The position numbers were made by a program, and so were the translations under genes. Below are positions 10,385 through 64,000 of a stretch of DNA of 64,000 bases, piece by piece. Positions within the stretch are counted from its first letter, which is position 1, and each line of letters opens with the position of its first letter. The stretch is from positions 1-64,000 of the forward strand of contig JAUCBJ010006468.1 in assembly GCA_032718475.1 (NCBI GenBank), written 5' to 3'. The notes under the pieces are model-generated. The model was not told the origin of the DNA, did no database searches, and saw only the letters and a list, made by a program, of their open reading frames with translations. The stretch is from Nemertoderma westbladi. Lineage: Eukaryota > Animalia > Xenacoelomorpha.

Positions 10385-11229
10385 TTACTTAAGGATCGTT
10401 TGAGTTGAGCGAGCGTAGTGGTACGTCGAACAAGTATCGCTCAAAACTCCCATAAGTATGGCGAGTAAAACTGTGTTTAGCGCAACGTCTCCGCGGATGT
10501 TTATGTCTTTCCGTTTGTTGATTAGGTCTAGGGCATTCATCGCAGTAATACCAAAGACGCGCATCTTGTAAGGGAAACGTTGGTGATCTTTCTCCAGTTT
10601 TACAATATTCCTCCATCTGTTCGAAGCTATCCGGTACAACAGGTAGCGGTCGATCGGCGGTAAGATACATCCTAGTAAAATAGACTCGTTTGAGTTCTAT
10701 CATAGGGTTATGATGTATACCTTGAGGATATCGAGTTTCTAGATTTTGTTGACTAGCTACATTGAGATAAGTTTCTCTCAAGAATTCTAAATATTCGTTG
10801 AAGTCACTACTCGTTCACTATTCTTTGAAGTTTATCCGGTTCTTCAACATCTTCTCTTTCGAGTCGGTTTCGAATAGAATTTTCATGTTCAATTCTCAGT
10901 TTATCATTCCAACTTCGCTGGGTATGATATTTAAATAGAATCATTTCCCTTTTGGTGTCTACATCGTCCGTATCGTGTAAATCAATACGATGACCAGTAG
11001 TTAAGAAGTCCATATACGTACCATTACGATGCGTATAGCGAGTGGTGAATTTTCTATAATCCAATTCACGCTTGAGCTGTTCCTTTGACATTGGCGGTTC
11101 GATATAACGGCCATCGTCTTCCGTCGTGTGTTGACTAGCGTCGCTGCTTATCAAACTATCCACAAATGCTTGCAGTGGTAGGGTATATCGCTCCCTGATA
11201 CCAAGATCATCTTCTATCAACTCAGTCAT
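10385..11229 (-). pseudogene. Element B accessory ORF 1, probably frameshifted (fragments 10807-11229, 10389-10781, 10385-10639)
   Basis: Consecutive minus-strand ORF pieces in three frames with protein-like composition. Confidence 0.5.
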
Positions 11230-32976: not shown

Positions 32977-34484
32977 TGTTACCGTTATTCCCGACACCAT
33001 GGGGGAAAAAGGCCGATGCTGGAGGCGGAACTTTTCAGACCACGGAATCCCGGCCAGTCACCGGATATTGATTGTGGAGAAGGAATACGTTCTTAAATGC
33101 AAGATTGCGGTTGAGGAAAAGCTTCATTGGTTGGATATACTCTTTAATGTAACTTCCCTACAGTTGAACCTTGTTCAACATTGAACCTTGATTGAGAATA
33201 AGTTGGGCTTCCCCAAATCAATATACACCAAATATTCACAATAATAATACACGACAATATAAATCCCTACAGTATATTATTTAATTACCCACTCGCTCAG
33301 ATTTTAGCCTAACTAATGTTCCCCGATTTTCCCTCTTGTCCTAGTCTTGGTGCCGTAGTGTCGGTGTCGGTCGACCCTGTTGCGTGTCCGTACCACCCTT
33401 CCCGAACCCCGAAGGGATCGGTCATCAGGAACCAGTACGGCTTGGCTAAGGGTCGGTCCAGTCGGTAGACTCTGTTGCGTATCCGTACCACCCCTCCCGA
33501 ACCCCGAAGGGATCAGTCATCGAGAACCAGTACGGCTTGGCTAGGAGTCTGTCATGTCGGTGGACCCGTTCGCGTGTCCATCCCACCCCTCCCGAACCCC
33601 GAAGGGATCGATCATCGAGAACCAGTACGGCTTAGCTAGGGGTCCGTCGGTTCATCGCAGAGCCCAACCACCTAGGCTTTCCGAGTCCTTATTCAGGCTC
33701 GTAGTCGCTTCGGCAGCCGAGAAACTGCTCCGAACAGTCGGTAGGCCAGTAGAGTCCAGTCCTTTGTCTTTCGACCCCGTTGCGTGTCGGTCCCACCCCT
33801 CCCGAACCCCGAAGGGATCGATCATCGAGAACCAGTACGGCTTGGCTAAGGGGTCTGTCGTCGGTTCCTGTCGCAAATCCCTGGCACAGGCAGCAGACTT
33901 TCCGATGTCCTTTTCAGGCTCGTAATAACTGCTGTTGAACAGAGACCACTAAGGGCAGTCCTCGTCAAACCCTTCCTCTGTTAGTCGGTCGACCCTTTCG
34001 CGTGTCCGTACCACCCCTCATGAACCCCGAAGGGATCGGTCATCGAGAACCAGTATGGCTTGGCTAAGGGGTCTGTCGTCGTTTCCCGTCGCAAATCGCT
34101 GACACAAGCAGCAGACTTTCCGATGTCCTTTTCAGGCTCGTAATAACTGCTGTTGGCCAGGGACCGCTAAGGGCAGTCCTTGTCCTTTAGACCTAGCGAG
34201 TTACCAAATCCACCTCTACAGGCAGCAGGAAGTTGGCTAGGCCTAATAGTAGTCAGGTAAACCTGAATACTGCTTAATTTTTCCTTCCCCCCTGGCCCTT
34301 ATATACATGAAATGAGTCCCGTACCCCGTAAGTCGCCCCAATATTCGCCCATAAATCGCCCCCAGTCCATCGAGTGTGCCCAAAACCCATGTTCCCGCAC
34401 CCAGTAGTGATATCGGAATAATCATTTTAAATAAATCCAAAAAATATTCAACTCGCGTTATGAAAAGTTGAAATACTGCGAACA
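32977..34484 (-). repeat. 3' LTR of element D, with five internal ~70-bp repeats
   Basis: Direct repeat of 46174-47701. Confidence 0.95.
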
Positions 34485-34656
34485 GTCCCCCCCAATGACC
34501 TTCGTGAGGTCTATCGGTAGATCGAGTTTGCGTAGGTCATTTCCCATATAAAAAACCCAAAATTTAATATTGCATAGTCTTGATTAATTTGGCCTAGAGT
34601 TAATATATATATAAAATAAATGTTCAATATAAATGTTCCTGGAATATCCTGGTCCT

Positions 34657-37250
34657 CTATTTCTTGCTCTGATACGCCTTTCTCCTCTTCGCCCGTCGAC
34701 TCTCGTCGATCGCTAGAGCTGGTAGGGGAGCATCGACATCCATCGTGAGCAACTTTCGGCTTGTCTCCTGGCGGCTCTTCCTTTCGATGGCAATGGGATC
34801 ATATCGGTTCGTCTTTCCAACTCGGTGTTGCGCGCCTCGAGGAACCACTTTCCGTCACCAAACTCTTCTTTATACGAATATAAGCGTGGAAGGATCTCGA
34901 ATGGGCCGAACAATCCGGCGCTTAGCAACAGATCCACGTAATGGAATGGTAACGTCACTGTTGTATAGAGGCGTTCCGGTAAGGAAAAATGCCCACACGC
35001 CATTTCCTGCGTGATATTCCGAGCGTTTCTCCGTACCTTAGTCTTTATGTGGCTATTTGCGTAAGTTTCGAACATAACAAGATTTCCCATAGCGGTAACA
35101 TTTTATATTGCAGCGGGGGCTAGCAGAATGTCCACGGAAACCGCAAGTTGTGCAGAGGTTATAGAGGATTGGACAAACTGAGACGTCGTGTCCCGATGTC
35201 GCGCAGTATGGACAATACAGAATCCCGAGGAGCTGTAGGCACGAATCTATCGAATCTAATCTACGAATCGATTTCGTCTACTGCGTGGGCACTGCTCCGA
35301 ACCGCAGTCTGCGCATATCTCTAACTGCATCTCCCGACCGAAGAAGATCGGGATCGGGACGCCGATGTAATACTCGAGTCGTCGGTCGCTCTTTTGAATA
35401 TTCGCTGTGGCCGGTAGCCCGCGAAAGGCTGGGCTTTGGCGTAGTAGGTTCTCGCTCCGATAGCCTTCTTTATGTCCCGCTGGCCTCATCTCGGACGACC
35501 GTTTCTGGCGGTGGATCCATTCGGTCTGCTCGGCGTACCATCGCGTTAGTCGCATAGGATCCTGTGGAACGGAGGGGGTAGTTGTCACTGCTGGTCGGCG
35601 AAGAGGTGCCGGGGTTTTCGACGGAGGGATTCCGAGGAGATCTTCGGGAGTCGGCGCAGCGCTGGGACCCTTCTCGACCAGTATCGCTGAGCGGGTCCGT
35701 TGAGTGCTGGTACTCGGAATCTCCGAAGACCAGTCTTCGCCGCCCAGGAAAGGATATGGGGATAAACTCTGGCATATGTCGCCAAAGTCGCTCAACGCGG
35801 AGGTAGTGACTAACTCCCTCGCAGGGCTACCGGAACCGAGTGGGGTGGAAGCACCTGCTTCCGTCGCAGGTTCGGCCGAGGCAACCCGTTTGGCGGCCGA
35901 TTCGTACGCGGCTTCCGGCTCGAGTGGTCGCATTGGGGTGGATAGTAGAACGCCTTCCTGTAGCCATAGTTCTTCCCCTTCTGAGGAAATCAGAGGCTCC
36001 TCCAGACCGAGAAGATCGGTAATCGTAGGGATGTCGTAAGGTCCGTTCTCATCCCAGGAATCGATAACGGTGAGCGTTTTTGTCTCTCCCGGTGTAATAT
36101 TCTCGACCTCTTTGAAGGCGTGGCTGATAACTTCATTCCAGTCGTAGTCGATAAAGGAACGAGGAACCGCCGTAATGAGGTTATCGAGAGTTTTACATAT
36201 GAACTTAGCGACGGTGTAGGACTCCATAATGACGTAGATGTAGTTCCGTCGGTCCGGATTTTCCCACCTTTGGTGTATCGTCCACTTCCTGTCAACGTCC
36301 TTCCATCGACCCTCTCGCTCGCTCTTTATTTCCAATCCCGGGTATCCACCATATATCTTATTATAGTCCTGGAATTTCTGAGGTTTAAAGTCGACGCCGC
36401 CGTTTAGTACTGCGAGGTAGCCGATACCGGATTTCGTCTGTCTCACCTTGTGGAATCCTCGCATGAATTCGGCGGATCGTAGCCAGGCTAATAGAGTCTG
36501 GGTGTCGACGCAATGACTGATGGCATTGAGATCTTCTTTACGGTCTCTCCCGAACGGAGCATTCGCGTAGTCGTTTCGGACGTCCGCTTTTATATCCGAC
36601 CCGATTTTAATGACGTCGAAGTCGAAGAGGATCTTTTGGATCTCCGGAGGTAGTAGCCAGATCACTCCGGCTGTCCGCACCTCCTGCCTGGGTGTCGGAA
36701 ATATTCGACACACCAATACCAAACCGTCAAGGGTTCCGAGGACGATGACCAAGGATCGACCGTATTCTTTCGTCCCGTACTTCTCCTGGTAGTCGTCGCG
36801 ATTCTGGATAATCGATATACGTTCCTCTCGTAGCGTCGTTGCCGCTAGGTTTCCTCAGTGGGTGAGGTACGTACTCTTGTCGTCGACGAAAGTCTGACAT
36901 CGCACCAACGTCATCGCTTTCGAGGTGGGCGTCGCGTTTCCCTCGTTGTCGTATATCAAACATCGGGATTTGTAGACGCTCTGCCGGAACGTATCCCAGT
37001 ACGACAACTCATCCCCTCCGGTAGCCTTTGCGTTCCGAGTTCTTTTCAGTCTCGTACTAGCATCGGCCAACCGGAGGGCTCATAGATTCCGGGAATCCGG
37101 TCCCTCTCGCCCGGAGAATTTGACGACTCACACATTCTCATTTATCAGGGTGCTCCAATTTGTATCAAAGTTAGGGGATCCAGGTTGTGGATATTCCAGT
37201 AGATCTATCGTATTACTTAATTCGCCGATAATTTGGCGATTTGGGTCCAT
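34657..37250 (-). pseudogene. Element D accessory gene: DEDD (WRN/RNase D-like) 3'-5' exonuclease plus CCHC knuckles, frameshifted; main piece 35256-36752
   Basis: LIYDNEG (~36939-36960), LPPEIQKILFDFDVIKIGSDIKAD, VDTQTL, SGIGYL, W...YIYVIMES. Downstream CADC, then CPYCATSGHDVSVC and CTTCGFRGH at ~35115-35215. Colinear with ORF 55130-57352. Confidence 0.72.
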
Positions 37251-37789
37251 ATTTACAATTATGTCCGTTGCAAATTTATATCAGTTAATTATAAATCCAG
37301 AGAGTCTGATACTATAGTGATTGCAGAATAATTCAGTTTATTTTTAATTCAGTTTATTAAATAACATTGCTATATAGGCATCTACCATCTTATTGCTAAT
37401 ACATTCAGCATTTACAGTTACTATAGCTATACATTAATATCCAACCAGTTTTGACTTTTTATGTCCTCTTCTTTTTTCCAATTCTTTTCTTTTTACATTT
37501 TTATACTTTATTTTGTCTTTTTTCATTTCTCATCATTATTTCATTTCACATTTCATTTATTTCAACACATTTCATCATTTATTTCCACCATTTATTTCAC
37601 ATTTCATTTATTTCCACATCATCATTGGGGTTATAGCCCCCTTGCTTTCATCATTTGTTATAAGCGCAGCACCAGGGTGCGCATCATTACATTTTCATCA
37701 TCATACGCATCATCATTCCGTTTATAGTAATGTCGTCTGTTTCCTTTCATCTTTTCCAACTACATTCTATCATCTTCTTTGGGAAATTT

Positions 37790-38225: not shown

Positions 38226-39024
38226 AACATACTACAATGGATACAATGAATTCCACTTCAAATCTTTACCATTTCCAATAATCCAATGTCATTGGTCCCG
38301 ATGACCAAAATCAGGGTTAACAATACATGAACGACCCTGCGTCAGTTGAAACATCTGCAGGGTGATGCTGGACTCCACATAACACACGAGGAAACACAAA
38401 TACCATTGCGTGGTTACAGTTGGTTTAAGGGGGGTCCATTACTCATTGTCGTTAAATCACAGTTATTAAAGAGTTTGTCAACAGGATGAGAAGGGTTTAA
38501 ACGGGTTTAGCATTGTCACCAATGTCTGCAGCAGGATCCTGAGTAGGGAGCTTATCACCTCTCGTAGAGTCACCGCTGTCATTGCCTTCAAGAAGGCACA
38601 GCCTCTGGATAGGGCGTTGTTAGTGGCCCTTTGCCGTTCGTATCATCACAGTCCTCGCAAGTCCGTCTTTGCTCGGGTGTATTGCCACGACTCGCACCAC
38701 AGGTCAGTGGACACGGTCTTTGAGATCTTCTTTCACTAGCACCATGTCGCCAACTGCGACATTCCTGTAGGTGTTGTTCCACTTCCTCCTGGTCCGGAGG
38801 GTTATGAGGTACTCCTGGGCCCAGATTCTCCACCAATGCGCTGCCAACGCTTGGGCCTTCTTCCAATTTGTATGTCTCGCGATATCGTTGGGATCCGGAA
38901 ACATTGTCTCTGGGAGAATATGGGTTTTGGGTCTTCCCAGTAGGTGGTTAGGAGTGAGGGGCTCCAGGTCTGTGGGGTCGTCGCGGATAGGGACAATGGG
39001 CCAGTTGTTCAGGGTAGCCGTGAT

Positions 39025-39417
39025 ACCATAATATTACACCTTTAATTACAGTTGCAACAGCTCATCTCCAATTTATTTAATTAATATCACCTGGCAGCAA
39101 TACCGAGCTGAATATTTATTTATTTGTACTTCCCTCCTGTTTCACTCTAGCATACTTGAGGCCATTAGGTCCGCTGTTAGAGATAGAATATTTGCAACTT
39201 AAGACTGCCCGTTCAATAGAAGTTGATTAGGTGGGACTGCGAGTGTCAGGGGCTAGTGGCTGAGCTGGTTAGCGCTACTGATGAGGCCTGTTAGGCCGAA
39301 ACGTGCGTATAGCGCTGGTTCAACCCCCGGTGACGCACTCCCATTTTTTCCACTTCTGAACAAACCCATAATATTACACCTTTAATTACAGTTGCAACAG
39401 CTCATCTCCAATTTATT
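39025..39417 (+). mobile_element. Penelope-like/retrozyme-type mini-element with terminal direct repeat
   Basis: 10-bp TSD TAGCCGTGAT at 39015-39024 and 39418-39427. ~53-bp terminal redundancy with 340-bp period. Contains a hammerhead motif. Confidence 0.8.
39269..39318 (+). ncRNA. Type I hammerhead ribozyme (short stem III, Penelope-like)
   Basis: agcgcta CTGATGA ggcc-tgtta-ggcc GAAA cgtgc GTA tagcgct: complete core, stems I and II paired, GUA cleavage triplet. Confidence 0.88.
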
Positions 39418-42400
39418 TAGCCGTGATCTCGCAGAATGTTGTGCGGAGGGTGTCATGGGTTACCCGGGTGTCTCCTAATGCGACGCGCATGGATCGTTTT
39501 ACTAAGTCGATTAGCTTCTCACATACCCCACTCGTATGGGGTGCTAAGGGTGTTTGGAAGTGCCACTGTATGTATATGGTGGTCCCTCCAGACTTGGGAT
39601 GCGGTGTCCTCGGTAAACCACCCCTCGATCGCCTCTCTAAGTTCTCTTTCTCCTCCCACAAAGTTTGTACCATTATCGGAGTACATATGACGACATGTCC
39701 CATTGTTCGCCACGAACTGACGCAGGGCGTTGATGAATGCGTGTTGCGTAAGGTTCACCACGATGTCTAGGTAGATTGCCCTAGACCTAAGGCAGGTAAA
39801 GATGGCTCCCCAGCATTTGATGTTGGATCGTCGCTCGATGACCGTAAACGGTCCAAAACAGTCTACTCCGGTTACATAGAACGGTGGGGAATCGGACTGT
39901 AGACGGGTGTCTGGTAAGTCGGCCATCTTTTGTGTGAGTGGTGGCGCTAGATATCTTCTGCAGGGAAAACAACGTTTTAACACTTTCCGGATCAGTGGCT
40001 GGATGTGGGTGATCCAATACCTTTGTCGTATATTAGCTATAATCCAGTTCTGTCCTGCGTGATGGTTTTCCTCGTGACACTGTTGGATTAATTGCTTAGC
40101 TAGTGTCGACGTTCTGGGCTGAAGCGCTGGGTATTTGACCTCGTATTCAACCGGGGCGTTTGCCATCTGGGAATTCAGTCGGATCAGTCCGTCCTCTCCC
40201 ATCATTGGTCTCAGTTGGTAGACTGGGCTGTCCGGTTTCAAGGTCTTGCCCGCACTGAGTTGTTCCCACTCATCGGGGAAACTTTCTCTCTGGACATATC
40301 CAACAATACACTTCTCCGCGATAATGAGTTCTTGTATACTCCGTTGAACTATCGGCTTGTTGTCTTTCCACCGTAGGAAGTTACGAAGGGTTATAACGTG
40401 GTGGATGAGATGTCTCATTGATGAAGTTCGCTCGATCAACAGGTGTAAAGACGCCGCTGGTTGAGTGATCGTCGCGACGTTATAGTGCCTGCCCGAGTCC
40501 TTTGCAGGCTCGGTCAGACAACTATAGATTTCCACTGCGTTGCTTCTATGGACTTTACGGATCTCCTTGTCGTCTTCGGAGTATTTTCCGCTATCGAGTT
40601 CGGGATCGAATCGGGTACTCCAGGTTAATTGTGGCTGCTGTAAGAATTCCGGGCCTGTAAGCCAGAGTTTACTTTTACAGAGTTGTTTTGGGGTGGCGCC
40701 TCGACTTGATAAGTCCGCTGGATTTTCTTTCCCGTTCACGTGGTGCCACTGTTCTCGGCCAGTGCACTGTTTTATCTCCGTGGCTCGGTTCGCTACAAAC
40801 GTGGTGTGACGCCGTGATGGAGAGTGGAGATAGTAGAGAACAATACTCGAATTGACCCAGAAGTGTTGAGATTCGATGGGGATTCGTATGTTCCGCATGA
40901 CCATGCGGTTCTGTCTCACTGCCCAAACTGCGGTCTGTAGCTCAAGTCTCGGAATCGTTGCTACGAATTCCCCGGATACTGTCTTAGCTTTAGAAAATAA
41001 GAAGCTCATATCGCCGTTTCCATCGTTACTTAGTCTTCTTAAGAAAGTGACTACGCCGATTCCGGTATTCGAAGCATCCGAGAAGGTATGGAGCTGGAAG
41101 ATATCGGTGGGTAGTTTATCGAGGAAGAACAGTCGAGGGATCCACATAAGATGTAGGTGTTCGAGCTGTTCCGTCCACTTTCTCCATTTGACACTGAGGT
41201 GTGGGGGGAGTTCTTCATCCCATTCCCATCCCAGTCCTTCTATCCACATTTCCTTAATCAGATTCATTCCGGCCAAGGTTACCGGAGATATGAAATTTAG
41301 TGGGTCGAATATTGCACTTTTTATTGACAAACATCCCCTTTTCGTCATAGGCTTGGGTTGTGGGTTATATTTGAAAATGAATTCATCTGATTCTATGTCC
41401 CATTCAATGCCGAGTACACGGTGTTCCACATCCTCGGAATACATTTTATTGTCCAGTCGGATTTCTTCCGGAAACCTTTCCATAAGTTTTTTGTCGTGGG
41501 ATCTGAACTTCACGGGAGGAAAACCTCCTTTCTTTAGACATTCCACCATCCCCATCGCTAGCTGATATGCCTCGTCAACATTATCCGCGCCGGCGCATCC
41601 ATCGTCCACGTAGAAGCATCGTCGGATTGTTTCTATGACGGTTGGAGGGAACTCGTTTTCGCACATAGTTGCCGTTTTCTTCAGCATGTCACTACATGAT
41701 ACCGGCGAGTCCTTAGCGCCGAAGATCCTGACGATCAGGCGCATTACGTCTACATCCTTCAATGTAAGTTGACTAATCTCCTGGGGAGTTAATGTTTTAT
41801 CCGTCCATAATATACGCAGACAGTCTGAGTCTCTTGGTAGTGTACGGACCTGGTGAAACATCGCTTTGATGTCGCAGGTGAATGCTATCCAGTTTTCCCT
41901 GAACCTGATCAACACGCCAATGAGTGTACTGTATATGTTGGGCCCCGTATAAAGCTGGCTGTTCAGGGATTCGCCTTGATACATATCGGCGGCATCATTG
42001 ACTACTCGGATTTTACCACCCTTCCGGGCTTCTACCACATAGTGGGTTGGGAGATAATATGTTCTTTTACCCCCTTGCAGTTCATTCTGGGGTACCATTT
42101 CTGCTAATCCATCTTCGAGATATCCTTTGATTACATTATTATATTTCTCCTTTATCTCGGGTTGGTCATTCAGCCGGCGTAGGATCCCTTTAAGTCGCCT
42201 AAGGGCCATGTTGGCATTATTCGCCATTGGTTTATTTGGGTCCTTCCATAACATGGGTGAACACCAGTGTCCGTCTTTGAACGTGGCCTGATCAAGGACG
42301 TCAATACAATATTGATCCTCCTCGGATGGGTTTTCGTCCTTTTCAGCGAACTCTTGGGTCTCTAGATTAAAGTATTTAGTCATCTCCTGCTGGGTTTTCT

Positions 42401-43513
42401 CGGTCTCAAGAAACAAATCCTCGTCGAGGTCTGTAGCTGAACAATAACCCACGGAGGTTGCATTCTCTTTAATCTGACATTTAGGAAGGTATGTATAGGT
42501 GTCTGTAGTCTCTTCCTTGATACCGCAGAGTGTCCATCCCATGATTGTTCGTTCATCGTAAAAGCCGTCATCCTGCTTTATAGATCGGGCGACGACTCCG
42601 GTGGGTATGTGTAATTTCGGTGTGTCAAGTCCGATCAATAGGGTGATGCGGTTTACGTCCAACGGCGGGCACCTTAGGTCTACATCTTCTCGGTCCAACT
42701 GTATGAGAGGGGCGTATTCGGCTGATTGTCGGAACCGCACTCGGAGATCTGTGTATACCAAGGCGTACTTGATTGTCAGCTTAACCGTCTCGTAGCCCTT
42801 CATTACTCCTTCCATCTGGAGCTGCACCTCCCCGGAATCTACTTCTCTGTGGTCGGTGATAGTTTGTATGGGCCGTTTGCAAGGTTCATAGTCTAGGCCG
42901 AGTTGCTCGAGGAAATCCCAGTCAATGATGGTTCCGTCCGACCCGTTATCAAGGAACGCGAGCATTGTCAAGGATTTCCCGACCCCTTGAATTCTTACTG
43001 GGATTACTTTGGCGAAGACCATATAACGGTGATTTATAAGGTTGATCGTGGCTGAGATATTTGTCACTTGTGATACATCAGTGGAGGTTTTAAACGGGTT
43101 GGTTTCTCTCCATTGGGTCGTCCGGGTTCCTTTAGAAACGTGGTTCATTTCTCCTCTTCGTTTGGCTTCAATCCGAAAGGGGAGGGTGGTGAAGTCAAAG
43201 TTCGCGGGGATGTGGAGGAGTGTGTGATGACGTAGGTCATTACACACACCCCACACGATCTTTGGTCGCAATCCCGAACATAGTGACCGGTTCCAAGACA
43301 CCGGAAGCATCCTCGGTGTTTCATTATCACCTCGAAGAGTGGGACAAGTTCGGCAAACTGGAACTTCCTGCAGAATTCCATTTTATGTTTCTCTCCGCAG
43401 AAGAGACAGAGAAGAGAGTTTGTGATGCCTTCCCTTTCAGGTGCCCAATTCGCAAGATAACACGCCCATTCCTCGGCTGATGTCGGTTCCTCGTAGTCTT
43501 CGTCGTCGGAATC

Positions 43514-45739
43514 CTAAGCCATGGTGATAGCCATCGTACTCACCGGAGGGGGACGGAATCTCGGTTTCTGAGTGGGTGTCTTACTCCTGGAGTTGCTCTC
43601 TATTCCATCTAACTTGGCGAGACTTTGTTTCGAGAACATCGAGTCATTCATGGCTTCGGAGATATCGTCCAGGAATGCCGACATTTCGAGGAAACTGGGA
43701 TCTCGATCTGGGTGTCTGCGCCGGAGATCTACGCATTTATAGGCCCACTTACTTTGCAGCCATCCGGGGAACTTTCGGGCGATCTGTCGGAGGTTTAGAA
43801 TGTTGTTTACTTGTTCCTCCTTATTTAATGGTTTTAGAGTGTAGTAGGCATCCTTCATGGAATCTGAGAATTCCTGGATATTCTGTGGGTCCCCTAGGGA
43901 TCCCGCGTCCTGTATCAGTTTCTCGAGAGTTTTATTAATTATAGTCCCGATATTTCCGTATCTTTTATCTAGAGTTTTCCATGCGTCATAGTATGCCTCA
44001 TGAGCTCCTCCCTCAAAGCATGCGATAATCCGGCGTGGTTTGTCACCCAGGTATTGGGATAAATATACTAGTTTTTGTGCGTCGGCTATGTCCGTTGACC
44101 CAATCTCCGCGAAAAACCGTTTCTTGAATCTGAGGTAATCGAGTGGATCTCCTTCGAAGGTGCGGATCTCCATCTTGGGCATGGCCAGTCGGTTCTCTAA
44201 TGCCCGGATAATGCCAACGTCGTCTGAGCCGGAATGACTAGGAGGGTTATAGTTATTGGCACTCTCTCCCATACACGATGGATCGATGATAGGTGGAGTT
44301 TTAATGATGACACGGCTACGGATTTGTGGTGTGGATGTAAATGGGTTGTTGGATCGGGGAGTGGCGACCCGTTCCGAGTCCTTTTCAGGCTCGTACTTGG
44401 GAACGCTCGGGACCGTGGGATTGGCTGGGATATAAGGTTCCTCATTCTTAAGCGTAACCAGTGGGGGATGGAATACCGGTGCTTGTGTCGATAACGTAGA
44501 CTGTATGGTAGGCGGGAACTCGGGTTTCGGAGGTTTCACCGCCGGTGTCGTTAATGACTTCTCTAATTCTGGTATCGGTATTGGTTCATAGTTCTGATCT
44601 ATACCCCTTTCCCAGTCCTCGTATATTTGAATATCTCGTTCTATAAGCGCGGCTTCGTATTCCGCGAGTTTCGCAATATACGCATTCTTTTTGTGGGTGA
44701 GAATCGCTTGGGCTTCGGCGTGTTGTTTACGCATTTCTGCTTCCCATTTACGTTGTTCGATCTCTCGTTCGGCCTCTCGTCCACGTTGTTCAGCCTCCTG
44801 TTTGCGTTGTTCGGCCTGCCGTTCGGCCTCTCGTTCACGTTGTTTAGCCTCTCGTTCACGTTGTTTAGCCTCCTGTTCGCGTTGTTCGATCTCCTGTTTG
44901 GCCTCTCGTTCGCGTTGTTCGTCCTGCCGTTCGGCTTCTTGTTTGGCCTCTCGTCTACGTTGTTCATCCTCTCGTTCGCGTTGTTCAGCCTGCCGTTCGG
45001 CCTCCTGTTTGGCCTCTCGTCTACGTTGTTCAGCCTCATGTTCGCGTTGTTCGGCCTGCCGTTCAGCCTCTTGTCTATGCTGTGCGGCCTCCTGTTCGGC
45101 CTCTCGTTTTTGCATTTCGGCTGCTAATACATCTTGCTCGACTTGCAGTTGAACATACTCATCTTCCATCCGAGCTTTGAGGGCTAATGCCTTCTGTTCT
45201 CGTAGCTGATCTCGGAGTGGCTGACCCCCTTGAGAACTGCGTGCCGAACCGGACCTCTCGCTGGAATGCTGGTTCCTAGAGGACCCCGTTCTCTTTCGAT
45301 GAATTGCTGTCCTGGTGCTGGAGGTTCGCACTGATTCTGAGTCTGTTCTTTCCGCTCTATTATAGTACTGTTCCTCGTAGCCTCTAACGAGGCTGAGGGT
45401 CCTCCGGTGTTGTTTGCGGAATTCGTCTAGATGTACAACATGTTGCTCTAATCTGGGGTAGTTTACCTGATCGGTGGCGGGAATGAGTTCTTGATACGCC
45501 TGTATCATCCTCTCATATCGTTGTAAGATACTCCGGATATTCTGAAGCTGAGTTTGTATCTCATTGAGGGGAGTTTCGACTCTCTTGAGTTGTTTCTCTA
45601 TACGTTGATACGCTCGAGTGACTCCGCCTTTGAGAGCGCCTAGTCGACGGGTCATGTTCTTGACATTCGGTACCTCGTCGGCTTCTGAGTCTGTGTTGGT
45701 GTCCATCTCGTCGGTGTCGGAGACGTTGTTTGTCGTCAT
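43514..45739 (-). CDS. gag: Element D gag (741 aa; frameshift before the zinc knuckles)
   Basis: PKMEIRTFEGDPLDYLRF, KLVYLSQYL, AWKTLDKRYGN (BEL gag core) plus a coiled-coil repeat. Confidence 0.9.
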   Translation of the reverse strand: MTTNNVSDTDEMDTNTDSEADEVPNVKNMTRRLGALKGGVTRAYQRIEKQLKRVETPLNEIQTQLQNIRSILQRYERMIQAYQELIPATDQVNYPRLEQHVVHLDEFRKQHRRTLSLVRGYEEQYYNRAERTDSESVRTSSTRTAIHRKRTGSSRNQHSSERSGSARSSQGGQPLRDQLREQKALALKARMEDEYVQLQVEQDVLAAEMQKREAEQEAAQHRQEAERQAEQREHEAEQRRREAKQEAERQAEQREREDEQRRREAKQEAERQDEQREREAKQEIEQREQEAKQREREAKQREREAERQAEQRKQEAEQRGREAEREIEQRKWEAEMRKQHAEAQAILTHKKNAYIAKLAEYEAALIERDIQIYEDWERGIDQNYEPIPIPELEKSLTTPAVKPPKPEFPPTIQSTLSTQAPVFHPPLVTLKNEEPYIPANPTVPSVPKYEPEKDSERVATPRSNNPFTSTPQIRSRVIIKTPPIIDPSCMGESANNYNPPSHSGSDDVGIIRALENRLAMPKMEIRTFEGDPLDYLRFKKRFFAEIGSTDIADAQKLVYLSQYLGDKPRRIIACFEGGAHEAYYDAWKTLDKRYGNIGTIINKTLEKLIQDAGSLGDPQNIQEFSDSMKDAYYTLKPLNKEEQVNNILNLRQIARKFPGWLQSKWAYKCVDLRRRHPDRDPSFLEMSAFLDDISEAMNDSMFSKQSLAKLDGIESNSRSKTPTQKPRFRPPPVSTMAITMA

Positions 45740-45927
45740 TCTAGCGCTTCGTTGATAGCTAGATATGCGATGTCATAAAAAAGTTCTTCGTAGCTCTCGT
45801 ACTCGGCTTGGACTACCCGAACGGTAATCCTGAATCGTCCGACGTTCGTTCCTTGTACTTCAACCTCGACGTGCCAGATTCCTGGCTCAACTTGGATTAT
45901 GTCAATAGGTGTGATCGATACTTCCAT
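45736..45927 (-). CDS. 63-aa upstream ORF overlapping the gag start (ATGA)
   Basis: ATG start, globular-looking composition, and a TGA overlapping the gag ATG at 45736-45739. Confidence 0.5.
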   Translation of the reverse strand: MEVSITPIDIIQVEPGIWHVEVEVQGTNVGRFRITVRVVQAEYESYEELFYDIAYLAINEALE

Positions 45928-46173: not shown

Positions 46174-47701
46174 TGTTGCCGTTATTCCCGACACCATGGG
46201 GGAAAAACGCCGATGCTGAAGGCGGAACTTTTCAGACCATGGAATCCCAGCCAGTCACCGGATATTGATTGTGGAGAAGGAATACGTTCTTAAATTCAAG
46301 ATTGCGGTTGAGGAAAAGCTTCATTGGTTGGATATACTCTTTAATGTAACTTCCCTACAGTTGAACCTTGTTCAACATTGAATCTTGATTGAGAATAAGT
46401 TGGGCTTCCCCAAATCAATATACACCAAATATTCACAATAATAATACACGACAATATAAATCCCTACAGTATATTATTTAATTACTGCTCCGAGTTCGCT
46501 CAGATTTTAGCCTAACTAATGTTCCCCGTTTTTCCCTCGGTCCTAGTCTTGGTGCCGTAGTGTCGGTGTCGGTCGACCCTGTTGCGTGTCCGTACCACCC
46601 TTCCCGAACCCCGAAGGGATCGGTCATCAGGAACCAGTACGGCTTGGCTAAGGGTCGGTCCAGTCGGTAGACTGTGTCGCTTATCCGTACCACCCCTCCC
46701 GAACCCCGAAGGGATCGGTCATCGAGAACCAGTACGGCTTGGCTAGGAGTCTGTCATGTCGGTGGACCCGTTCGCGTGTCCGTCCCACCCCCCCCCCCCC
46801 CCCCCCCCCCGAACCCCGAAGGGATCGATCATCGAGAACCAGTACGGCTTGGCTAGGGGTCCGTCTGTTCATCGCAGAGACGCAACCACCTAGGCTTTCC
46901 GAGTCCTTATTCAGGCTCGTAGTCGCTTCGGCAGCCGAGAAACTGCTCCAAACAGTCGGTAGGCCAGTAGAGTCCAGTCCTTTGTCTTTCGACCCCGTTG
47001 CGTGTCCGTCCCACCCCTCCCAAACCCCGAAGGGATCGATCATCGAGAACCAGTACGGCTTGGCTAAGGGGTCTGTCGTCGGTTCCCGTCGCAAATCCCT
47101 GGCACAGGCAGCAGACTTTCCGATGTCCTTTTCAGGCTCGTAATAACTGCTGTTGACCAGAGACCGCTAAGGGCAGTCCTCATCAAACCCTTCCTCTGTT
47201 AGTCGGTCAACCCTTTCGCGTGTCCATACCACCCGTCACGAACCCCGAAGGGATCGGTCATCGAGAACCAGTACGGCTTGGCTAAGGGGTCTGTCATCGT
47301 TTCCCGTCGCAAATCCCTGACACAAGCAGCAGACTTTCCAATGTCCTTTTCAGGCTCGTAATAACTGCTGTTGGCCAGGGACCACTAAGGGCAGTCCTTG
47401 TCCTTTAAACCTAGCGATACCAAATCCACCTCTACAGGCAGCAGGAAGTTGGCTAGGCCTAATAGTAGTCAGGTAAACCTGAATACTGCTTAACTTTTCC
47501 TTCCCCCCCTGGCCCTTATATACATGAAATGAGTCCCGTACCCCGTAAGTCGCCCCAATATTCGCCCATAAATCGCCCCCAGTCCATCGAGTGTGCCCAA
47601 AACCCATGTTCCCGCACCCAGTAGTTATATCGGAATAATCATCTTAAATAAATCCAAAAAATATTCAACTCGCGTTATGAAAAGTTGAAATACCGCGAAC
47701 A
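46174..47701 (-). repeat. 5' LTR of element D
   Basis: Direct repeat of 32977-34484. Confidence 0.95.
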
Positions 47702-54526: not shown

Positions 54527-55045
54527 CTATTCCTTCGCTGAGCGGGCTCGTCCACGTCCTCTAGTGCGATTGGGGGGTGGTCGAGGTCGAACTGGGCTCG
54601 GACTTCGGCGTCGAGTCGTCGGTGGTTCCAAAACGCTAGGAAAGGGGACGACGGGAGTTTCGCACATCCGTCGTGCGCTCAATCCTCTAAATCCTCGTCC
54701 GATTCCAACTGACGGCTTAACATCGGATCGAGTTTCTACAACGCTAGGAGGAAGTCGAAAAGGTAGGACCGTTCCGTCCGTTGACACCTCGCTCTCTGAC
54801 GTCGTTTGAATCCTAATGGGTTCAGTCAAAGTGTATCCTGTCCCTCCGCGTGGTTCTCTAGCAAGGGAAACCGTGCCCCGAGTCATCCGGATTTGCGACT
54901 TCGATGTCGTCCTCTCGGCGACATTTACTATCTTCTTAGTCTCTTGTCCGGCCTTCTGGGCTTTGAGTATACGAAATTGCTGATCATCCTGTGGGTGACG
55001 CGTCTTCTCTGCTAACGGCGTGGCCTTGAAGCCAGTCTCACGCAA
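54527..55045 (-). CDS. Basic R/S/P/T-rich ORF downstream of the E exonuclease gene
   Basis: 172-aa frame ending RRRSPSPVRPRPPPNRTRGRGRARS. An ATG overlapping the previous stop (55131-55133) may be the original start, offset by a frameshift. Confidence 0.45.
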   Translation of the reverse strand: MRETGFKATPLAEKTRHPQDDQQFRILKAQKAGQETKKIVNVAERTTSKSQIRMTRGTVSLAREPRGGTGYTLTEPIRIQTTSESEVSTDGTVLPFRLPPSVVETRSDVKPSVGIGRGFRGLSARRMCETPVVPFPSVLEPPTTRRRSPSPVRPRPPPNRTRGRGRARSAKE

Positions 55046-55129
55046 AACGTCGGTCTCGTCCAGAATGCACGAGGTTACGCGTTTGTGATAAAATGCGCTC
55101 CGGTATGCCCAAGCTATCGAATGCCAGGC

Positions 55130-57347
55130 TCATCGATTCCGCTGTTCAACTCGCAGTTTATCGAATTCTCCGGCGGTAATCTTGTTCACCACAGTTTGAA
55201 AGTTCCAAGTATTCTTGTTGTCGGGGTGCACTTGTAAGAAATAGTCCCGCACAACTTTGAATCCACTGTCCAACGGCAATATATCCAATACCTCCAACAA
55301 TTCATCGTACTGAGGCATAGCCGATACATATCCTTCCTTTGACATTATGAGAGGGTTTACGGCCCAAAATCCCAAATGTGCTCTCATAGGGAAGCGGCGT
55401 CGCTGCGTCGATACATGTTCGTCTGCTAGATCCTCCCAATGGTCGAATAATTGTCGAACGATTTTAACTGACATGTGCTCATAGGGGACGTCTCTAAGTT
55501 GACATTCGGATGCCCTATGGCCCTTAATATTACAATAAGTACACTGCGCCACGAAACGCCAGCAAGTGTAGAAAGTGTGCGAACGTTGATCCCCGCACCA
55601 GTTGCATACTAAATCCGGTAGAGATATGTGCTTCGCTCCGCACTTCTTTGCGTGATGGCCAGTTGCTCCACATCTGCCACAAATAGTGTTGGCAGGATAC
55701 CAAACTCGCTCATAGATGAGATCTCCGATGGGGCGAGCGCTACCGTCCACGTGATAATTCTCATCATCCGGGTCAGTCGGTATGTTCGTCTCCGTAGGTT
55801 GTACACAAACCATGGCATCGCTTTTCTCCAACTCGCGTATCTCAGTTCGCGTCTTCCTCGGAAGGTTCTCCTCTATTTCTATGAGTTGCCGTAACGGTTT
55901 GTCTATTAGCGCCAACTCGGTCGGATCCACATCGTCATGATGGGCGGTAGGCTCGCGAGCCTTCCAGGATCCTTCCGGGCATTCGAATTCCGCGTGGCGT
56001 TCCCCGTCGTAGGGTACTAACGTTAACATCGACGGTCTGTCGACTAGACTTCCCGCGTGAGTGAGATAGACGTCCCTGAAAACGCTAAGTCCCGCTCGCG
56101 TGAAAACTTCGCAGTGCGCATCGGTGTTATAAAAGGGTTGGAGAAATCGTCGGAATACATCAGTATGCGTCCTTCCTCCATCGTAAAAGGTATGTCCTTC
56201 GCCAAGACATAACGGGTGTCGCTTTAGGGTTCTGGATACTACGTCTGCGATGAAACAAACGTTAACCGAAGATTCTATCGCTAAATAGTATTGCAAGATT
56301 ATCCGCGGAGGTGAAGTAATCGCCCAATACACGCAACCTCGCCACTTCAACTGTGACTCGAACTCGTTTACGCCGGGGGTATCTCCCTCTCCGTATACGT
56401 CCGTGTATTTGTTCCTCTTACTCTCCTTGTAATCCCAACTGAACATTAGATATGAGATATAACCCGTCCCAGTTTTTAGCGTGTTATACTCCCTAAAGTA
56501 TCCTTGCTCAATAGCCCAAAGCAACAATGGTCTAGTATCCACGTATGGCGTAGGCAATCGGTCCTCTTCCGTGGGCATCCCGGCAAAGTCGCTAATGAGG
56601 TCATCCCGTACACCGGATCCGATCTTGACGATGCTCTTATCCAACACAACGTCTCGCACGGCCTTTGGCAACATCCTAGCTTCTATGCTACAAGCCAGGT
56701 CCATGGATTTAACTATCCGTTTTATCATCGCGTGTCTTTGCGTCGTTCCTTCCGGCATAGGCATCTTCCTATCACTCCTCTGTCGGCTGAAGACATGTAA
56801 CACGCCATCTGGTGCTCTAATCTGTATAGTCTTTGAAGTGAGGCTTTGCTGATGGCTTCCTCCTTCATTATCGTAAAACATATAACCATTCTCTTTCAGA
56901 GATCGGCTAGTCACGTCCCAATCGTCGAGTAAATCGTCGGTAGGGTTCCAAATTCTCCCAATCGACTTTTCATCATAGAAACTAATAGGTTTACCGGTCC
57001 AATTGGTCGCGATATCGGTGTCGGTCTCAAACGTTCCAACTCCGATCCATAATTGAATCGTTTTCGTCAGATATCCTCGCAAGATACAAGGTGCGATATC
57101 CGTCCCCGCGCGATCCACTTCCTTAAAGTCCGTGATATGTGGAGGCACGTTGCGTACGATTTTTTGAACTATTACTTTACGCAACTCGGCTGACTCTAAC
57201 ACATCACCGAAGGTAACCGATGGGAGGAAATCCAGGTTCGAGATGATCTCCGGGTGTTCAACTATAGGGATCTCGTAAGTTGTCTCCTTCCGGGTCGGTA
57301 TACTAATAGGAAAACTAGTTGGTCTCGCAACCGGTACTATCGCTCCA
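55130..57347 (-). CDS. Element E accessory gene, 3' part: DEDD 3'-5' exonuclease plus three CCHC zinc knuckles
   Basis: MFYDNEG, IQI, LPKAVRDVVLDKSIVKIGSGVRDD, VDTRPL, TGTGYI, LQYYLAIES; CGRCGATGHHAKKC, CNWCGDQRSHTFYTC, CTYCNIKGHRASEC. Uninterrupted frame of ~740 aa. Confidence 0.8.
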
Positions 57348-59102
57348 GGCACGTTCCACGGTAAAGTACGTGACTGTCAGAGACCAATTTTTACATTCTT
57401 TTGCAAATTACATATATCCAACAGTCTTCATAGAGCATCAACTTGTGATATTCTGAGAGACAAAGTATTCTGCTACACGTTTAGTATAGAAGCTAAACTT
57501 CTTAGTGTAAATGGCGTTAGTAATCATCAACCAAACGCAGGTAAAGTACGTGACGCGCAGAAATTTTAAAATATATTTTTTTTAATGTAAGTCCAAAATC
57601 CAGCGAATTGAGCAACTTGAGGTAATAAATGAGTCCACAGCAGCCAAGAGGTAATATTGCTGTTTCCAAAACAGCCTTTATTGACATTTCAAACCTAACG
57701 CTATTCGGTGAATTTGATGTAAAACAAAGTAAAGTACGTGACATTGCCAAGTAAAGTACGTGACCCATGCGATTTCATTCGAATATCCAAATCTATTTCA
57801 CCCCGCTTCCATGCGGCAATATATTTTTACAATCCAATTTGGTAACGAAATTAACTAGAAACAGATTCTATCATATTTTTAAAGACCGGGTGATTGAAAA
57901 TAATAATCAAATTTTGATTAACCAACGGTTATTATAGTCCATGTTTCGCTATTACACACACTGGTGATATCATGTATTGTCTTTTTTATTGTGCAGTAGT
58001 CGCAGTTCGTATAGCGTGATGGGGGATTGCTTATTCTTAATGACGTTGCCACGGCCCTAGCTGTATCTGTATCGAGGTTACCGCTAGGCGCTATGGTACT
58101 GGCACGTTTCTAATTAATTAGAACCATACTAAGTCTGGGGGAAAATGTTGCTGTCATCTCATTAACCATGGGCCATGCGCGCGTTATCAATTATTGATAA
58201 TATTTAATTGGTTGTCTCTGGGGAAACAATAGTTCATAACAAATGGACTTATATCACCCCACCCTGATCTGTTAGACATATCGTTTTGCATGCTTCAGTT
58301 GCAGGTGGATAGAGTTGTCATCCAATAGACGCCGAGCTCCTCCAGGTGTCCTGATGGGCAGGATTCACAGTGTGTGATGCGCTGGCACTGCTTAAGTGGT
58401 CAGTTATAGTCCATACAACCGTTACCTACTTTACGGAAAAATATTTTTATGTCACGTACTTTACGAAAAAATATTTTTATGTCACGTACTTTACGAAAAA
58501 ATATTTTTATGTCACGTACTTTACGAAAAAATATTTTTATGTCACGTACTTTACGAAAAAATATTTTTATGTCACGTACTTTACCATTGTAAATGTGTCA
58601 AAAGCACAGAATTTTCGAGAAATGTTCAACGCAAAACATGTAAATATACTTTAATATTGTAGATTCCACTTTTAGTTCCCATGGAGCTAAATTTGACTTT
58701 ATATAATAAAATAATACATATTTTTGGTAAAGTACGTGACATTCAAATTGCCTCATTCAAAAATCAAAAGTATTAGTCAGTCAACTCGTTTTAAATCATG
58801 AACAACGTGGCATTGCATTCCCAAAATGTATATATTCCATCTGAAAAGGCTGAAAATAGCAAAACTGTATTGCATTGTATCAAATTTTCAAAAAACAAAA
58901 TGTCTCTAATTTTGACAAAAAAATTGAAATTTTAACGCACCAGCTACCAGAGTAATTTACGATACTAAAATTTATAAATTTGAGATTTATAGTTGCAGAT
59001 TCGTATTCTGCGATAAATTTCGATCTAGTAAAAGTTCACAAAAGCCAACAATACCTAATTTTTAGAAATGAGCCCTTGGTTGACGTTATCGTGGAACGTG
59101 CC
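57348..59102. mobile_element. Non-autonomous TIR DNA transposon (1755 bp)
   Basis: TIRs ggcacgttccacg(g/a)taa, TSD TCCA at 57344-57347 and 59103-59106. About 10 internal gtaaagtacgtgac motifs in both orientations, including a 30-bp tandem array at ~58425-58586. Confidence 0.85.
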
Positions 59103-60041
59103 TCCAGTAGAATGGGGCTGAGGTTCTCGCGTCATCTCGACATGAGGTATCTGTAGTCTCTGCGAAAAATGCTGAGCAAAGGTGATACTATCGAAGAGCT
59201 CGGGTGTCATCTCCTTGGGTTCGGTTTGATCGTGGGATATCCAATAGAATGGTAGGCTCGCGAGCCTTCCGCCGAACTCCTCGATCTCGCCTTTCTCGTA
59301 CGTCTTGTACGCCCTGTAGAGGCTCAAAGCTTCCCGTTTCTCTTGTGTCGACTTATTAGACTCGTCCACTACCATGCTGTAGACGTCTGGTTCGACTAAT
59401 TTAGGTTCGTAAATAACGATCTCACCCGCGTTCGGTCCACTCATTTTAAACGAATGATACGGATTTGTCAAAGGGTATCCGCCTTCTTGGTAACGTAGAC
59501 TTTGGTGGTGTGAACATCGCGCTAATATCGGCTCGGGGTTCTCCGAGTTCAACCGCATAGGAATCGCGTTGTCTTGCTCGCGCATACACGCTCCACATTT
59601 ATAAAACAGTTTGTATATGGAGAACGCGTCCTTGGTCTCTGGATCCGCTCCTCGAGCGCGTCTATAAAGATGCATTCCTTCAAATTCGTCTCTAGCTGCA
59701 GGTAAGGGTTCGTTTACCGTCAAATATTGCAGCGTATGATACAATCGGCGTATTTCGGTGTCTGGATCCTCGCAAATGTCGCTAGCGTCGCATAACGCAT
59801 CGTAGGGATATAACGCATTGTACTCCAAGCGTAATTCCTCCGTTCTTTTGTTGTATGCGTCCAACCGCTGTCGCGTAACATTCGGGTCCGCCTTGGATTT
59901 AGCGAGCTTGGCCGTACTCCTAGCCACACTCTCCACTCCAAACACACTAAAGTTTTTAGCTCCATAACGATTGAATGGCGCCTGGTGCTCTTGTTCTTGC
60001 GTAAACCCTTGACGTAACTCTTTATACATCTTCTCCGCCAT
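59103..60041 (-). CDS. Element E accessory gene, 5' part (313 aa), in frame with 55130-57347 after transposon removal
   Basis: ATG at 60041 with CGAC...CSHH motif. The junction rebuilds ...HSTG-AIVPVARPT... Confidence 0.78.
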
Positions 60042-60777: not shown

Positions 60778-63700
60778 CTATTTACTAATATTGGGTGGAG
60801 ATTTGTAGTCTCCCGTCTCGTTTCTAGTCTCCTCAAGGAGCACGAGACGTTGTACAGGCCTATCTACGGTACGTCCGTCGATAGTCCTTACAGTAACTGT
60901 CCTCACTACACCAGATGTAGGGTGCGTGGTCAAAATGACTCCAGTCAGCCAAAACCGTCTTTTCAGATTAGCTTCAGCCAATAAAACATGGTCACCATGT
61001 CTTAAACATCGGGTATTTAGATACCAAGAGGTTCTGGTTGAAATAGAGGGCAAATAATATTTCTGCCATATTTCCCAGAATTTATTTGCAAGTAATTGAG
61101 TGATTTTCCAAGCCTTGTTGCCGTATCCGTCACTATCAACGGGTACCGAAATGGGCAACAATGTCGTTGGCGCCTGCATAAGCAGGTGCACTGGTGTCAA
61201 GGCAAACTGTACGTCGTTATTGTCTGGGATCAAAGCGATCGGTCTGGTATTTAAGATTGCTTCGATTTCTATTAGTAACGTCGTTAGTTGGTCGTCTGTC
61301 AAGATGTGTTGCGTCGGTACGACTTTAGCCATAGCTGTCTTTATTGAGCCAATCAGCCTTTCCCAAACGCCGCCTCTCCACGGACTGTCTGGAGTATTGA
61401 AAAACCAAACAATACGGTGAGGACGTAGTTCCTCTGAAATCTGGTTTTGGTCCAACTTTCTCAAAGCTCTGGTTATTTCGTTCCGTGCACCCACAAAGTT
61501 TGTCCCTTGGTCGCAATATATGGATTTGACCAATCCACGTCTAGCGATAAATCGCCGTAAGGCTAGGATAAAGGCATTGGTGGTCAAGTCTGTCACTCGC
61601 TCTATATGGACAGCTCTGCTGGCCATGCAAGTGAAGATCAATCCCCAACGTTTTACCTGTACCCTTCTGCGTTTCGCGATTATGGGTCCAAAACAGTCTA
61701 TCCCTGTCTCAGTGAAAGGGGGTCTAAACGCCTGTAATCTAGCTAATGGTAGTTCACTCATTTCTTGGTGTCCTATCCTCGCGTGCACCTTCTTACAAAT
61801 AATACAGTTCCGTGTTACCGAACTCAGTGCCTTACTAGGTCTAATCAGTACAAACCTCGAGAAGTGTGATAGACAGTGGTGTCTACCTACGTGTTTGAGT
61901 TGTACATGTGCGTCCAGTATCATAGCGCGCTGTAATTCATGGTGTTGCGGTATGATGATAGGATACCTAAAGTCAAGTGCAAAGTCGATGTTTTGGAGTC
62001 TGGACTTGTGACAAAGTAAGCCCCGGTAAATAATCGGACTCCAACTCAAAATCGGTGAAGACTTAATCTGTTTACCTTGTTTGATCGGTGTGAACTCTCG
62101 TGCGAAATATCGCAATTGATAATGTCGAATGATATCAACTTCACAGTGGCCAATTTCCTTTAAGGTAAGTCTTCTAGGAAAGTCGCGTTTGCCTCTGGCA
62201 TATTGTCTCAATCGTTTGAGCCATGCTAACTTGCGGCACGCGTCAGTCCATGATCTAGTTAGGTTCACTATCCTGTCAATGTAAGTGTTGGTGACGTCAT
62301 CAGGTAAGGTGTAGTCGTAGTGTGGATACTTGTCTGGACTTGGTAGGCCCACGGGCCTTCCGGTAGGTTTGTCTGAGTCCCCAAGTACGTCAATCTCTAC
62401 GGTCTTACCTTTACCGTCCGCACCTAATGTGTCGACTGGCAGTAATGGTTTCAACTCTACAGTGTCAGTGTGTTCCTGTGAGCCTGTAAGCTTCCTAACC
62501 TTAGTCACACGTTTACCTGTAGGTAAGTCAAGTACCTTCTTCGAGCGGAGTGTAATCCCTGTGGCCACACCTTTGTCGTCCAAAGAAGTCAAATTTGGTG
62601 AGTCTCTAAAGGTCCGCTCCAATGGGTCTTCTAATGGAGTGTCTAGTAGACAGTCTGGTGAAGTGTCTGGTGAACAGTCTGGTGAGACGTCTGGTGAGAC
62701 ATAGCGCGGAACATCCGGCGAAATGTCCTGTCGTCGGTCCCAAAGTCTGTCTAGCGTAACTTCTGTCAGAAAGTCTAGTCCAAAGTCTGGTCTAAAGTCT
62801 GGTGGACAGTCTGTCGAGATGTCTGGTGGAAAGTCTGGTGAGACGTCCGGTAGACATTCTGTCGAGAGTTCCATCAAACAATCTGGCGAACAATCCGGAG
62901 AACAATCTGGTGTCGCTTCTGGTGAATAATCTGGCGAGTAATCTGGTGAACAATCCGGCGAAACATCTGGTGAAATCTCCCGCGGAACATCCGGCGAAGG
63001 ATTCGTACAAGCGTCTGGTCGAATGTCTGGTGAGACGTCTGGCGTAATGTCAGGTCTGGCATCCAGGTCATCAGATTTCGTCCGTCCTTTTTTCCTCTTG
63101 ACCTTGGCGTTGGCTTTCGCTTTAGACTTGACAACCTTGTCGAGTTTTATCTCGGCACCCTCTGGTATGGTGTTGGTTGTCGCGTCGAATAACGGTGGCC
63201 ATTCGTCTGATGGTCGCTGTAGGAAATCGGGTCCTCTAAACCAAAAGGATTTATTGTCCGGTTTACAAAAGTCAAGCGGTTGCATCCCCCGTGACGCGAT
63301 GTCAGCTGGGTTCAGCTTCCCTGGACAGTGACGCCAATCTTGTTTGAGCGACCGGTCTAATATTTCAGCCCGTCTGTTGGCTACGAAAGTCTTGAACTCA
63401 AATGTTTCGTTGTTTATGTACCAAAGTACCAACGTCGCATCCGTCCAATATGTGACCTTCAAGTTAGCCTCCAGCTCGCGTTGAACTAGACTGACAATAT
63501 CTGTGGATATCGTCCCGGCTTGCAGCTCCCCACGAGGTACAGTCATATACTTCAAAGGCATTGTTCTAGCCCTTGAAGTAACGAGAGATACATCGTAGCT
63601 GTCCGATGTCACTTGTCGTCTAAGGTATAAAGTAACCCCCAATCCATCCTTGCTAGCGTCACTAAAGCTGTGAAGCTCTAAATCGGCAGGAAAGGTGGTT

Positions 63701-64000
63701 TGCAAAGGAAAGTATACCCTCGGTATGGTATAGTCTTGTAGGAACGTCAGTTGGGCTTCCCAGTCCCTCCATCACTCAGCTAACTTTTCTGGGATGGGAT
63801 CGTCCCATTCCAGTCCGGCTTGCCAAATGCTGCGGAGTATGATCCTAGCATGCAGGATCACTGGACTAATGAAACACAATGGGTCATACAATCGACTCAT
63901 AGTCGATAAGCAAGTCCTCTTAGTGAGAGGTCTAGTCTGGTCGTTGGACCTTACACGTACCCTAAAATTGTCGGTGTTAGGGTCCCAACTAAGTCCTAAT
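60778..64000 (-). pseudogene. pol: Element E pol 3' part (RT end, RNase H, integrase); in-frame TGA at 63772-63774
   Basis: ELHSFSDAS, VPRGELQA, NPADIASRG, HHCC, GIDCFGP, YCDQGTNFVG, GGVWERLIG, GVVRTVTV. BEL-like sequence continues in frame upstream of the stop. Confidence 0.93.

Follow-up and report, generated by a model that had tools for sequence, protein, structure and literature searches.

The window, a 64-kb stretch of repeat-rich, animal-type DNA, contains three BEL/Pao elements (C, D and E), all on the minus strand. Element D spans 32977-47701 on the minus strand and is bounded by a pair of TG...CA LTRs that are 95.6% identical, the 5′ LTR at 46174..47701 (-) and the 3′ LTR at 32977..34484 (-). 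The target duplication GTTGT stands on both sides, at 47702-47706 and at 32972-32976, and a purine tract at 34485-34493 precedes the 3′ LTR. The two LTRs contain five copies of an 81-bp unit (33392-34090 and 46594-47308). Inside them lie gag (43250..45772, minus strand, lower limit approximate), with DUF1759 and Cys-His boxes, which is damaged by one stop and a frameshift, both near its end, and pol (38497..43382, minus strand), which encodes protease, RT (YVDD), RNase H (PF05380, DAS), integrase and a DUF5641-type tail. The order PR-RT(YVDD)-RNase H (PF05380)-IN is that of BEL/Pao, and PF05380 occurs in all 120 relatives listed. The closest of these in the databases, which come from fish, molluscs, cnidarians, tunicates and other groups, are only 34-43% identical to D. 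With its TG...CA LTRs, 5-bp target duplication, purine tract, gag and pol, D is a BEL/Pao LTR retrotransposon. An insertion at ~39024-39516 interrupts pol in the integrase tail; two ~55-bp repeat copies there flank a stretch that is tRNA-like by eye, for which ARAGORN and Rfam gave no match, and Rfam and tRNA scans of the whole window also returned no matches.

Element E is cut by the window end. The 3′ part of its pol (60778..64000, minus strand), which extends past that end, bears a BEL-type RNase H, integrase and DUF5641, placing E in BEL/Pao. Its 5′ end lies beyond the window, and no second copy of the putative E LTR is present in the window. The earlier note on this DNA described the D LTRs as unrelated to the putative E LTR; this stands insofar as nothing downstream of E matches the D LTR as DNA, the E LTR itself being putative. 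A 37-bp tandem array (50428-51763) lies downstream of E, possibly inside the putative E 3′ LTR. Element C (7053-21483, minus strand) has LTRs that are 92% identical and the target duplication GACCG; no integrase match was found in C. C is interrupted at 11667-13558 by a LINE-type RT fragment (RVT_1 + DUF6451), both ends of which bear a 205-bp direct repeat.

Downstream of pol, D carries an additional gene, ORF3 (34713..37250, minus strand), encoding an exonuclease, an acidic/disordered linker, Cys knuckles and a closing helix. As the earlier note had it, this gene is enclosed by the LTR pair and target duplication. A ~1.25-kb non-coding spacer, in which three copies of a 38-nt unit lie at 37810-38200, separates it from pol, and ~220 nt separate it from the 3′ LTR. 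The DEDDy exonuclease domain maps to 36189..37013 (-), with ExoI D-x-E, ExoII D and ExoIII Y-x3-E, and the Cys knuckle region to 35119..35451 (-), where the family profile matches in a shifted frame (iE 2.3e-7). The reading frame is disrupted by three in-frame stops (~37130, 37082 and 36857) and by the frame-shifted stretch that bears the knuckles. The gene ends at a stop near 34715, rather than at 34657 where the earlier note had placed its end.

The corresponding region of E appears in the window as three post-pol frames of 335, 748 and 200 codons, the 748-codon frame having no ATG for 163 codons. These are one gene of ~1,250 codons, with its ATG 737 nt past the pol stop; the window copy is split by an insertion of 1.75 kb that has inverted repeats and by a stop private to this copy. 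The N-terminal part (59102..60041, minus strand) comprises ~313 codons from the first ATG and bears a Cys/His module; the main part (54527..57348, minus strand) encodes the exonuclease (~56150-56935), the linker, three Cys clusters (~55490-55690), the closing helix and a basic tail. The intervening sequence (57349..59101, no strand assigned) is a non-coding element nested in the gene. It has terminal inverted repeats of 12 bp and a target duplication of 6 bp, although 13 and 4 would fit as well, and the sum of its length and the target duplication is the offset in frame of the E ORFs on either side. We aligned contigs of three DNA runs (one organism, three studies) to 54600-57450. In the two deepest runs, the last bin, which lies past 57383, shows a drop in summed depth of over tenfold, and in all three runs a loose end occurs at 57348, with letters that match the window at ~59109. 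The stop at 55130-55132 is not present in the aligned contigs of the three runs and is private to the window copy. The window copies of the exonuclease gene in D and E are thus both dead. A spliced leader had been a candidate explanation for the missing early ATG in the 748-aa frame and was rejected, as the insertion accounts for the lack. Within the nested element itself, a 14-nt motif occurs ten times, in either orientation, with five of the occurrences in a 30-bp tandem array; the contigs suggest further copies of this element.

At the protein level, the D and E genes are related. All the D/E motif pairs quoted in the earlier note were found, colinear and on the minus strand, and blastp aligned the two exonuclease genes at 29% identity over 121 aa (E=1e-12), whereas no similarity was detected between the genes as DNA, which agrees with the protein conservation despite DNA divergence proposed there. 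The D-to-E alignment suggested as a check is significant: the local alignment score of 161 compares with a mean of 42.7 and a maximum of 66 among shuffles, none of 200 shuffles scoring as high. The knuckle match by itself, which lies in a different D frame, is less strong, with a score of 57 that was reached by 1 of 500 shuffles.

Searched singly against Pfam and PDB, neither the D nor the E exonuclease gave a match, including to solved cellular exonucleases (E<=1). A two-sequence D+E profile of the exonuclease region only, searched over 1.84 billion representatives at E<=0.001, retrieved eight unnamed relatives, whose ENA or Logan contigs measure no more than 2.4-9.4 kb. Length-limited word-based searches for homologues, with E residues 130-420 and with the family alignment, gave no matches. 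In five of these eight, the acidic linker, the three Cys clusters and the closing helix, which is the segment marked in the earlier note as FETYAN.../WEDLAD..., continue beyond the exonuclease even though the query lacked the knuckles. Because of this shared arrangement, proteins with an exonuclease, a linker, three Cys clusters and a helix are, as judged from their sequences, an uncatalogued family. A profile made of the eight outside proteins matched E (iE 9e-34), the D exonuclease (1e-21) and the D knuckles at 35451-35119 (2.3e-7), and did not match element C; the exonuclease part of this comparison is partly circular, as the relatives were chosen via D and E, whereas the knuckle part is not. 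The best match of D was the relative P0121 (1e-14), which matches the D tail too. Scans of viral contigs and metagenome contigs for the contexts of the relatives gave no matches. The earlier note had raised grouping of the two exonucleases with different host genes as a point that would count against their common history; so far as this is testable, it finds no support, neither sequence alone having a cellular match and the library search giving only members of their own family.

With the family profile of 11 rows, EXD2 (1.4e-8) and Egalitarian (7.8e-5) are matched; Rrp6 is missing among the matches at E<=1, and an origin from Rrp6 was ruled out on this basis. The Atlas gave PF01612 at 0.92, yet with only 158-163 shared features, which we treat as a lead. 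In an AlphaFold model of E, the exonuclease core has pLDDT values mostly of 70-87 (in blocks of ten) and the whole model 51, the knuckle and tail part being of low confidence; a single-sequence fold of E had a pLDDT of 32.8. The model matches diDNase (Z 11.8, rmsd 4.0, 167 residues aligned), Nibbler (11.5, 3.8, 183), NrnC (11.1), and Klenow and trypanosome RNase D (10.7), all of these top matches being near-tied. The modelled E core has the RNase H-like DEDD fold, and profile, fold and motifs together identify the shared domain as a predicted DEDDy 3′-5′ exonuclease. As modelled, the fold does not tell RNases from DNases, nor active enzymes from derivatives that bind RNA, Egalitarian being one of these. 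The maximum 19-residue hydropathy is 0.5-1.5 in the E parts and 2.1 in D, the latter inside exonuclease strands, and by this measure neither D nor E has an env-like transmembrane segment outside those strands. An envelope-type ORF3 was ruled out, there being no transmembrane segment and the top fold matches being exonucleases.

Across the alignment, the ExoI D and E, the ExoII D and the ExoIII Y are invariant in 11/11 rows, and they persist at about 20-25% overall identity. The fourth acid, in ExoIII, is D in seven rows and E in three (D, E and P0121), and is absent in one.

Additionally, the E gene is multi-copy, with 2654, 1443 and 62 matching contigs in the three runs, in identity classes from 99+ to under 90%. 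There are no indels among the listed differences, and some contigs skip parts of the gene. From 395 differences found, the best-supported 40 were examined; omission of the stop site and of four in the insertion left 35. Among these, 26 of the 29 differences segregating among E copies are synonymous, where random transitions would give 33% (binomial 4e-10); of the 6 that are private to the window copy, 0 are synonymous (Fisher 5e-5). Because of this synonymous excess, E ORF3 is under purifying selection in active lineages, and the window copy has decayed neutrally after the insertion. The D-E protein homology, the eight relatives sharing catalytic positions and the mostly synonymous variation among E copies support the view in the earlier note that this is an old, selected gene and not a chance capture. 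One contig of run X4 joins 54673 to 57196, skipping the whole exonuclease-knuckle region of E, and suggests a deletion derivative.

The same note had also proposed that the gene defines a BEL/Pao sublineage, and this is not shown by the trees. RNase H identity is 36% for D-E, 37% for D-C and 41% for E-C. Quick trees from RNase H alone pair E with C (FastTree 0.987; SH-aLRT 92-93), both being long branches, and C has no exonuclease; a D+(C,E) clade appears only in FastTree (0.788), and a D+E clade is borderline (AU test on 17 rows, p-AU 0.052). The exonuclease tree joins D and E weakly (61/32), adjoining P0121. The accessory region of C (10443..10718, minus strand) is homologous to the N-terminal module of E ORF3 at 59102-60041 (score 114, 0/300 shuffles as high); this shared Cys/His module (CxxC...CxxH) has no match in Pfam or the Atlas and is missing from D. 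In C, it is followed not by an exonuclease but by ~400 codons unrelated to E. The make-up of ORF3 is thus exonuclease-knuckle in D, N-module, exonuclease-knuckle and tail in E, and N-module with another part in C. Because C has the N-module of E but no exonuclease, the sequences point to a modular ORF3 with loss or exchange of parts, rather than to a demonstrated clade marker. The absence of the exonuclease from C also means that it is dispensable for some related elements.

E also contains a repeated, hairpin-forming 19-nt motif, with six copies on the minus strand at 62343, 60407, 59252, 55947, 54495 and 54372 (span 54372-62361). They are spread across pol, the spacer, ORF3 and the 3′ region, two of them inside the ORF3 coding sequence, and the shared motif ties pol, ORF3 and the 3′ region of E together. 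The motif occurs nowhere else in the window, D included, and 0 copies are expected. The copy at 62343 preserves the stem via a compensatory pair; the folding energy of the hairpin is no better than that of shuffles (z -0.6 to -1.5). We regard it as a candidate packaging or protein-binding signal.

Taken together, D and E are, with high confidence, BEL/Pao elements whose accessory genes are homologous and encode a predicted DEDDy exonuclease followed by three knuckle-like clusters. For its function we favour, with middling confidence and on sequence and model, that the ORF3 protein binds the element's own RNA and trims the 3′ ends of that RNA or of reverse-transcription intermediates. ORF3 would be expressed as a separate cistron, and the 0.7-1.25 kb non-coding spacer between it and pol would require a spliced or internally started (subgenomic) RNA. 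The retained acidic residues suggest that the exonuclease is catalytically active, and the zinc-knuckle-like clusters may bind RNA, perhaps at the repeated hairpins in E RNA. Acting in cis on the element's nucleic acid, the enzyme would remove mismatched or non-templated 3′ nucleotides, or trim RNA ends. A role in cis is favoured because a benefit to the element itself is the simplest reason for a gene to be kept under selection.

ORF3 might instead be an active exoribonuclease that, by trimming or destroying host piRNAs or siRNAs or the precursors of these, reduces the silencing of the element; we think this rather improbable. Nibbler, which trims small RNAs, is among the top fold matches; however, these matches are tied among many DEDDy families. 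The product of a stand-alone cistron need not enter particles by packaging, and E is present in many copies, as might suit such a suppressor, but one acting in trans would presumably also aid competing elements, making long-term selection harder to explain. For the DEDDy ORF3s of rotifers, PMC5408684 discusses a part played in silencing.

It is less probable still that the protein is mainly RNA-binding, like Egalitarian, EXD1 and Maelstrom, with catalysis dispensable, and that it recognises hairpins in the genomic RNA to promote export, transport or packaging. Egalitarian is the second profile match and, according to entry titles, has been solved in complexes with RNA localisation elements; the six hairpin motifs of E, with two in the ORF3 coding sequence and one bearing a compensatory pair, and the replacement of the fourth acid by E in both elements would fit such an adaptor. 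The motif is absent from D, however, and three acids and a tyrosine that are invariant at so low an overall identity are a better fit to catalysis.

Most doubtful is that D and E independently captured members of a mobile or host exonuclease family that have no lasting role in the element: the lack of support for D+E as a clade in either tree, the outside relatives being known here as proteins, and the contig lacking the whole gene would allow it, but the strong synonymous excess among E copies, the equal position and orientation in two families, the D-to-E change in ExoIII common to both elements and the lack of introns argue against it.

The usual description of a BEL/Pao element is gag-pol, to which an env is occasionally added. 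Malik, Henikoff and Eickbush reportedly noted in 2000 a 3′-5′ exonuclease domain in Cer elements of C. elegans, in which case BEL/Pao elements with an exonuclease would have a precedent. Outside BEL/Pao, Juno and Vesta are Ty3/gypsy-like elements. A study of bdelloid rotifers describes DEDDy-exonuclease ORF3s in Juno, Vesta and Athena/Terminon (Rodriguez, Kenefick, Arkhipova 2017, PMC5408684), activity being undemonstrated there, and this is echoed in passages of PMC6431247, PMC6338049 and PMC5718144. As described there, the rotifer genes resemble ORF3 of D and E in encoding a DEDDy 3′-5′ exonuclease downstream of pol, in retaining the catalytic residues and in their patchy occurrence among families, which suggests module exchange. 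They are set apart by their description: the host element here is BEL/Pao, the motif is DEDE (third acid D, fourth acid changed) against DEED in the rotifer ORF3s as given in PMC5408684, and in D and E the exonuclease is accompanied by a linker of some length, by three Cys clusters and by a closing helix that is conserved, to which E adds the N-terminal module. BEL/Pao (Belpaoviridae) elements such as Cer7, Cer13, Atlas and Tas likewise have extra coding capacity downstream of integrase, described as an env-type ORF3, in contrast to the enzyme without a transmembrane segment in D and E. An exonuclease ORF in BEL/Pao was not found in the literature searched, which excluded Repbase, Dfam, subscription papers and supplements; the portions of the main texts of PMC3118150, PMC2774666, PMC554778 and PMC9094657 that were covered contain neither "exonuclease" nor word-initial "nuclease", the covered portion of bioRxiv 10.64898/2026.03.22.711591 contains no "exonuclease", and PMC11662393 has nothing relevant.

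Among cellular proteins, EXD2, Egalitarian, Nibbler/Mut-7, WRN, NrnC and RNase D (the PF01612 group) share the fold and the ExoI-III motifs, but at 10-20% identity in structural alignments, and none of them is singled out as the donor. Trypanosoma brucei RNase D (PDB 7c42-7c4c, CCHC-type domain-containing protein) also combines a DEDDy domain with CCHC knuckles (Z about 10-10.7); it is, however, a cellular enzyme with a non-significant profile match (E=0.29), making it an architectural analogy only.

The novelty lies in the superfamily, in the protein family and in the evidence that the gene is selected. With D and E, the capture of exonucleases, already published for elements of rotifers, extends to another LTR superfamily and a different protein family, and an enzyme-encoding ORF3 under purifying selection in a multi-copy family indicates that BEL/Pao elements also evolve accessory enzymes. 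The family has probably been missed in repeat annotation, because it escapes Pfam and single-sequence searches. With its unbroken exonuclease-to-knuckle stretch, evidence of selection and candidate RNA motif, E makes the role of a retroelement exonuclease testable with isolated domains. It is conceivable, though we consider it doubtful, that a broad radiation of invertebrate BEL/Pao elements carries the exonuclease-triple-knuckle family as its standing accessory gene. The product would be an active, hairpin-guided nuclease for end-polishing or proofreading, or for suppression of small-RNA silencing, and the ORF3 that encodes it would be modular, with families exchanging its parts.

Other features surround the elements in the window. 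D is nested in a foldback-like element with long inverted arrays of 15/17-bp units (32516-32960 and 47999-48475), and a second LINE fragment lies at ~31688-32518. On the plus strand, a 438-codon Cys-containing ORF at 48908-50224, without a match in Pfam, has about three internal repeats ending in an LGLGDTG-like motif and is possibly a host exon. Adjoining C on the right, ORFs with an aspartyl-protease match at 21582-23808 (+) are likely a fragment of another LTR element.
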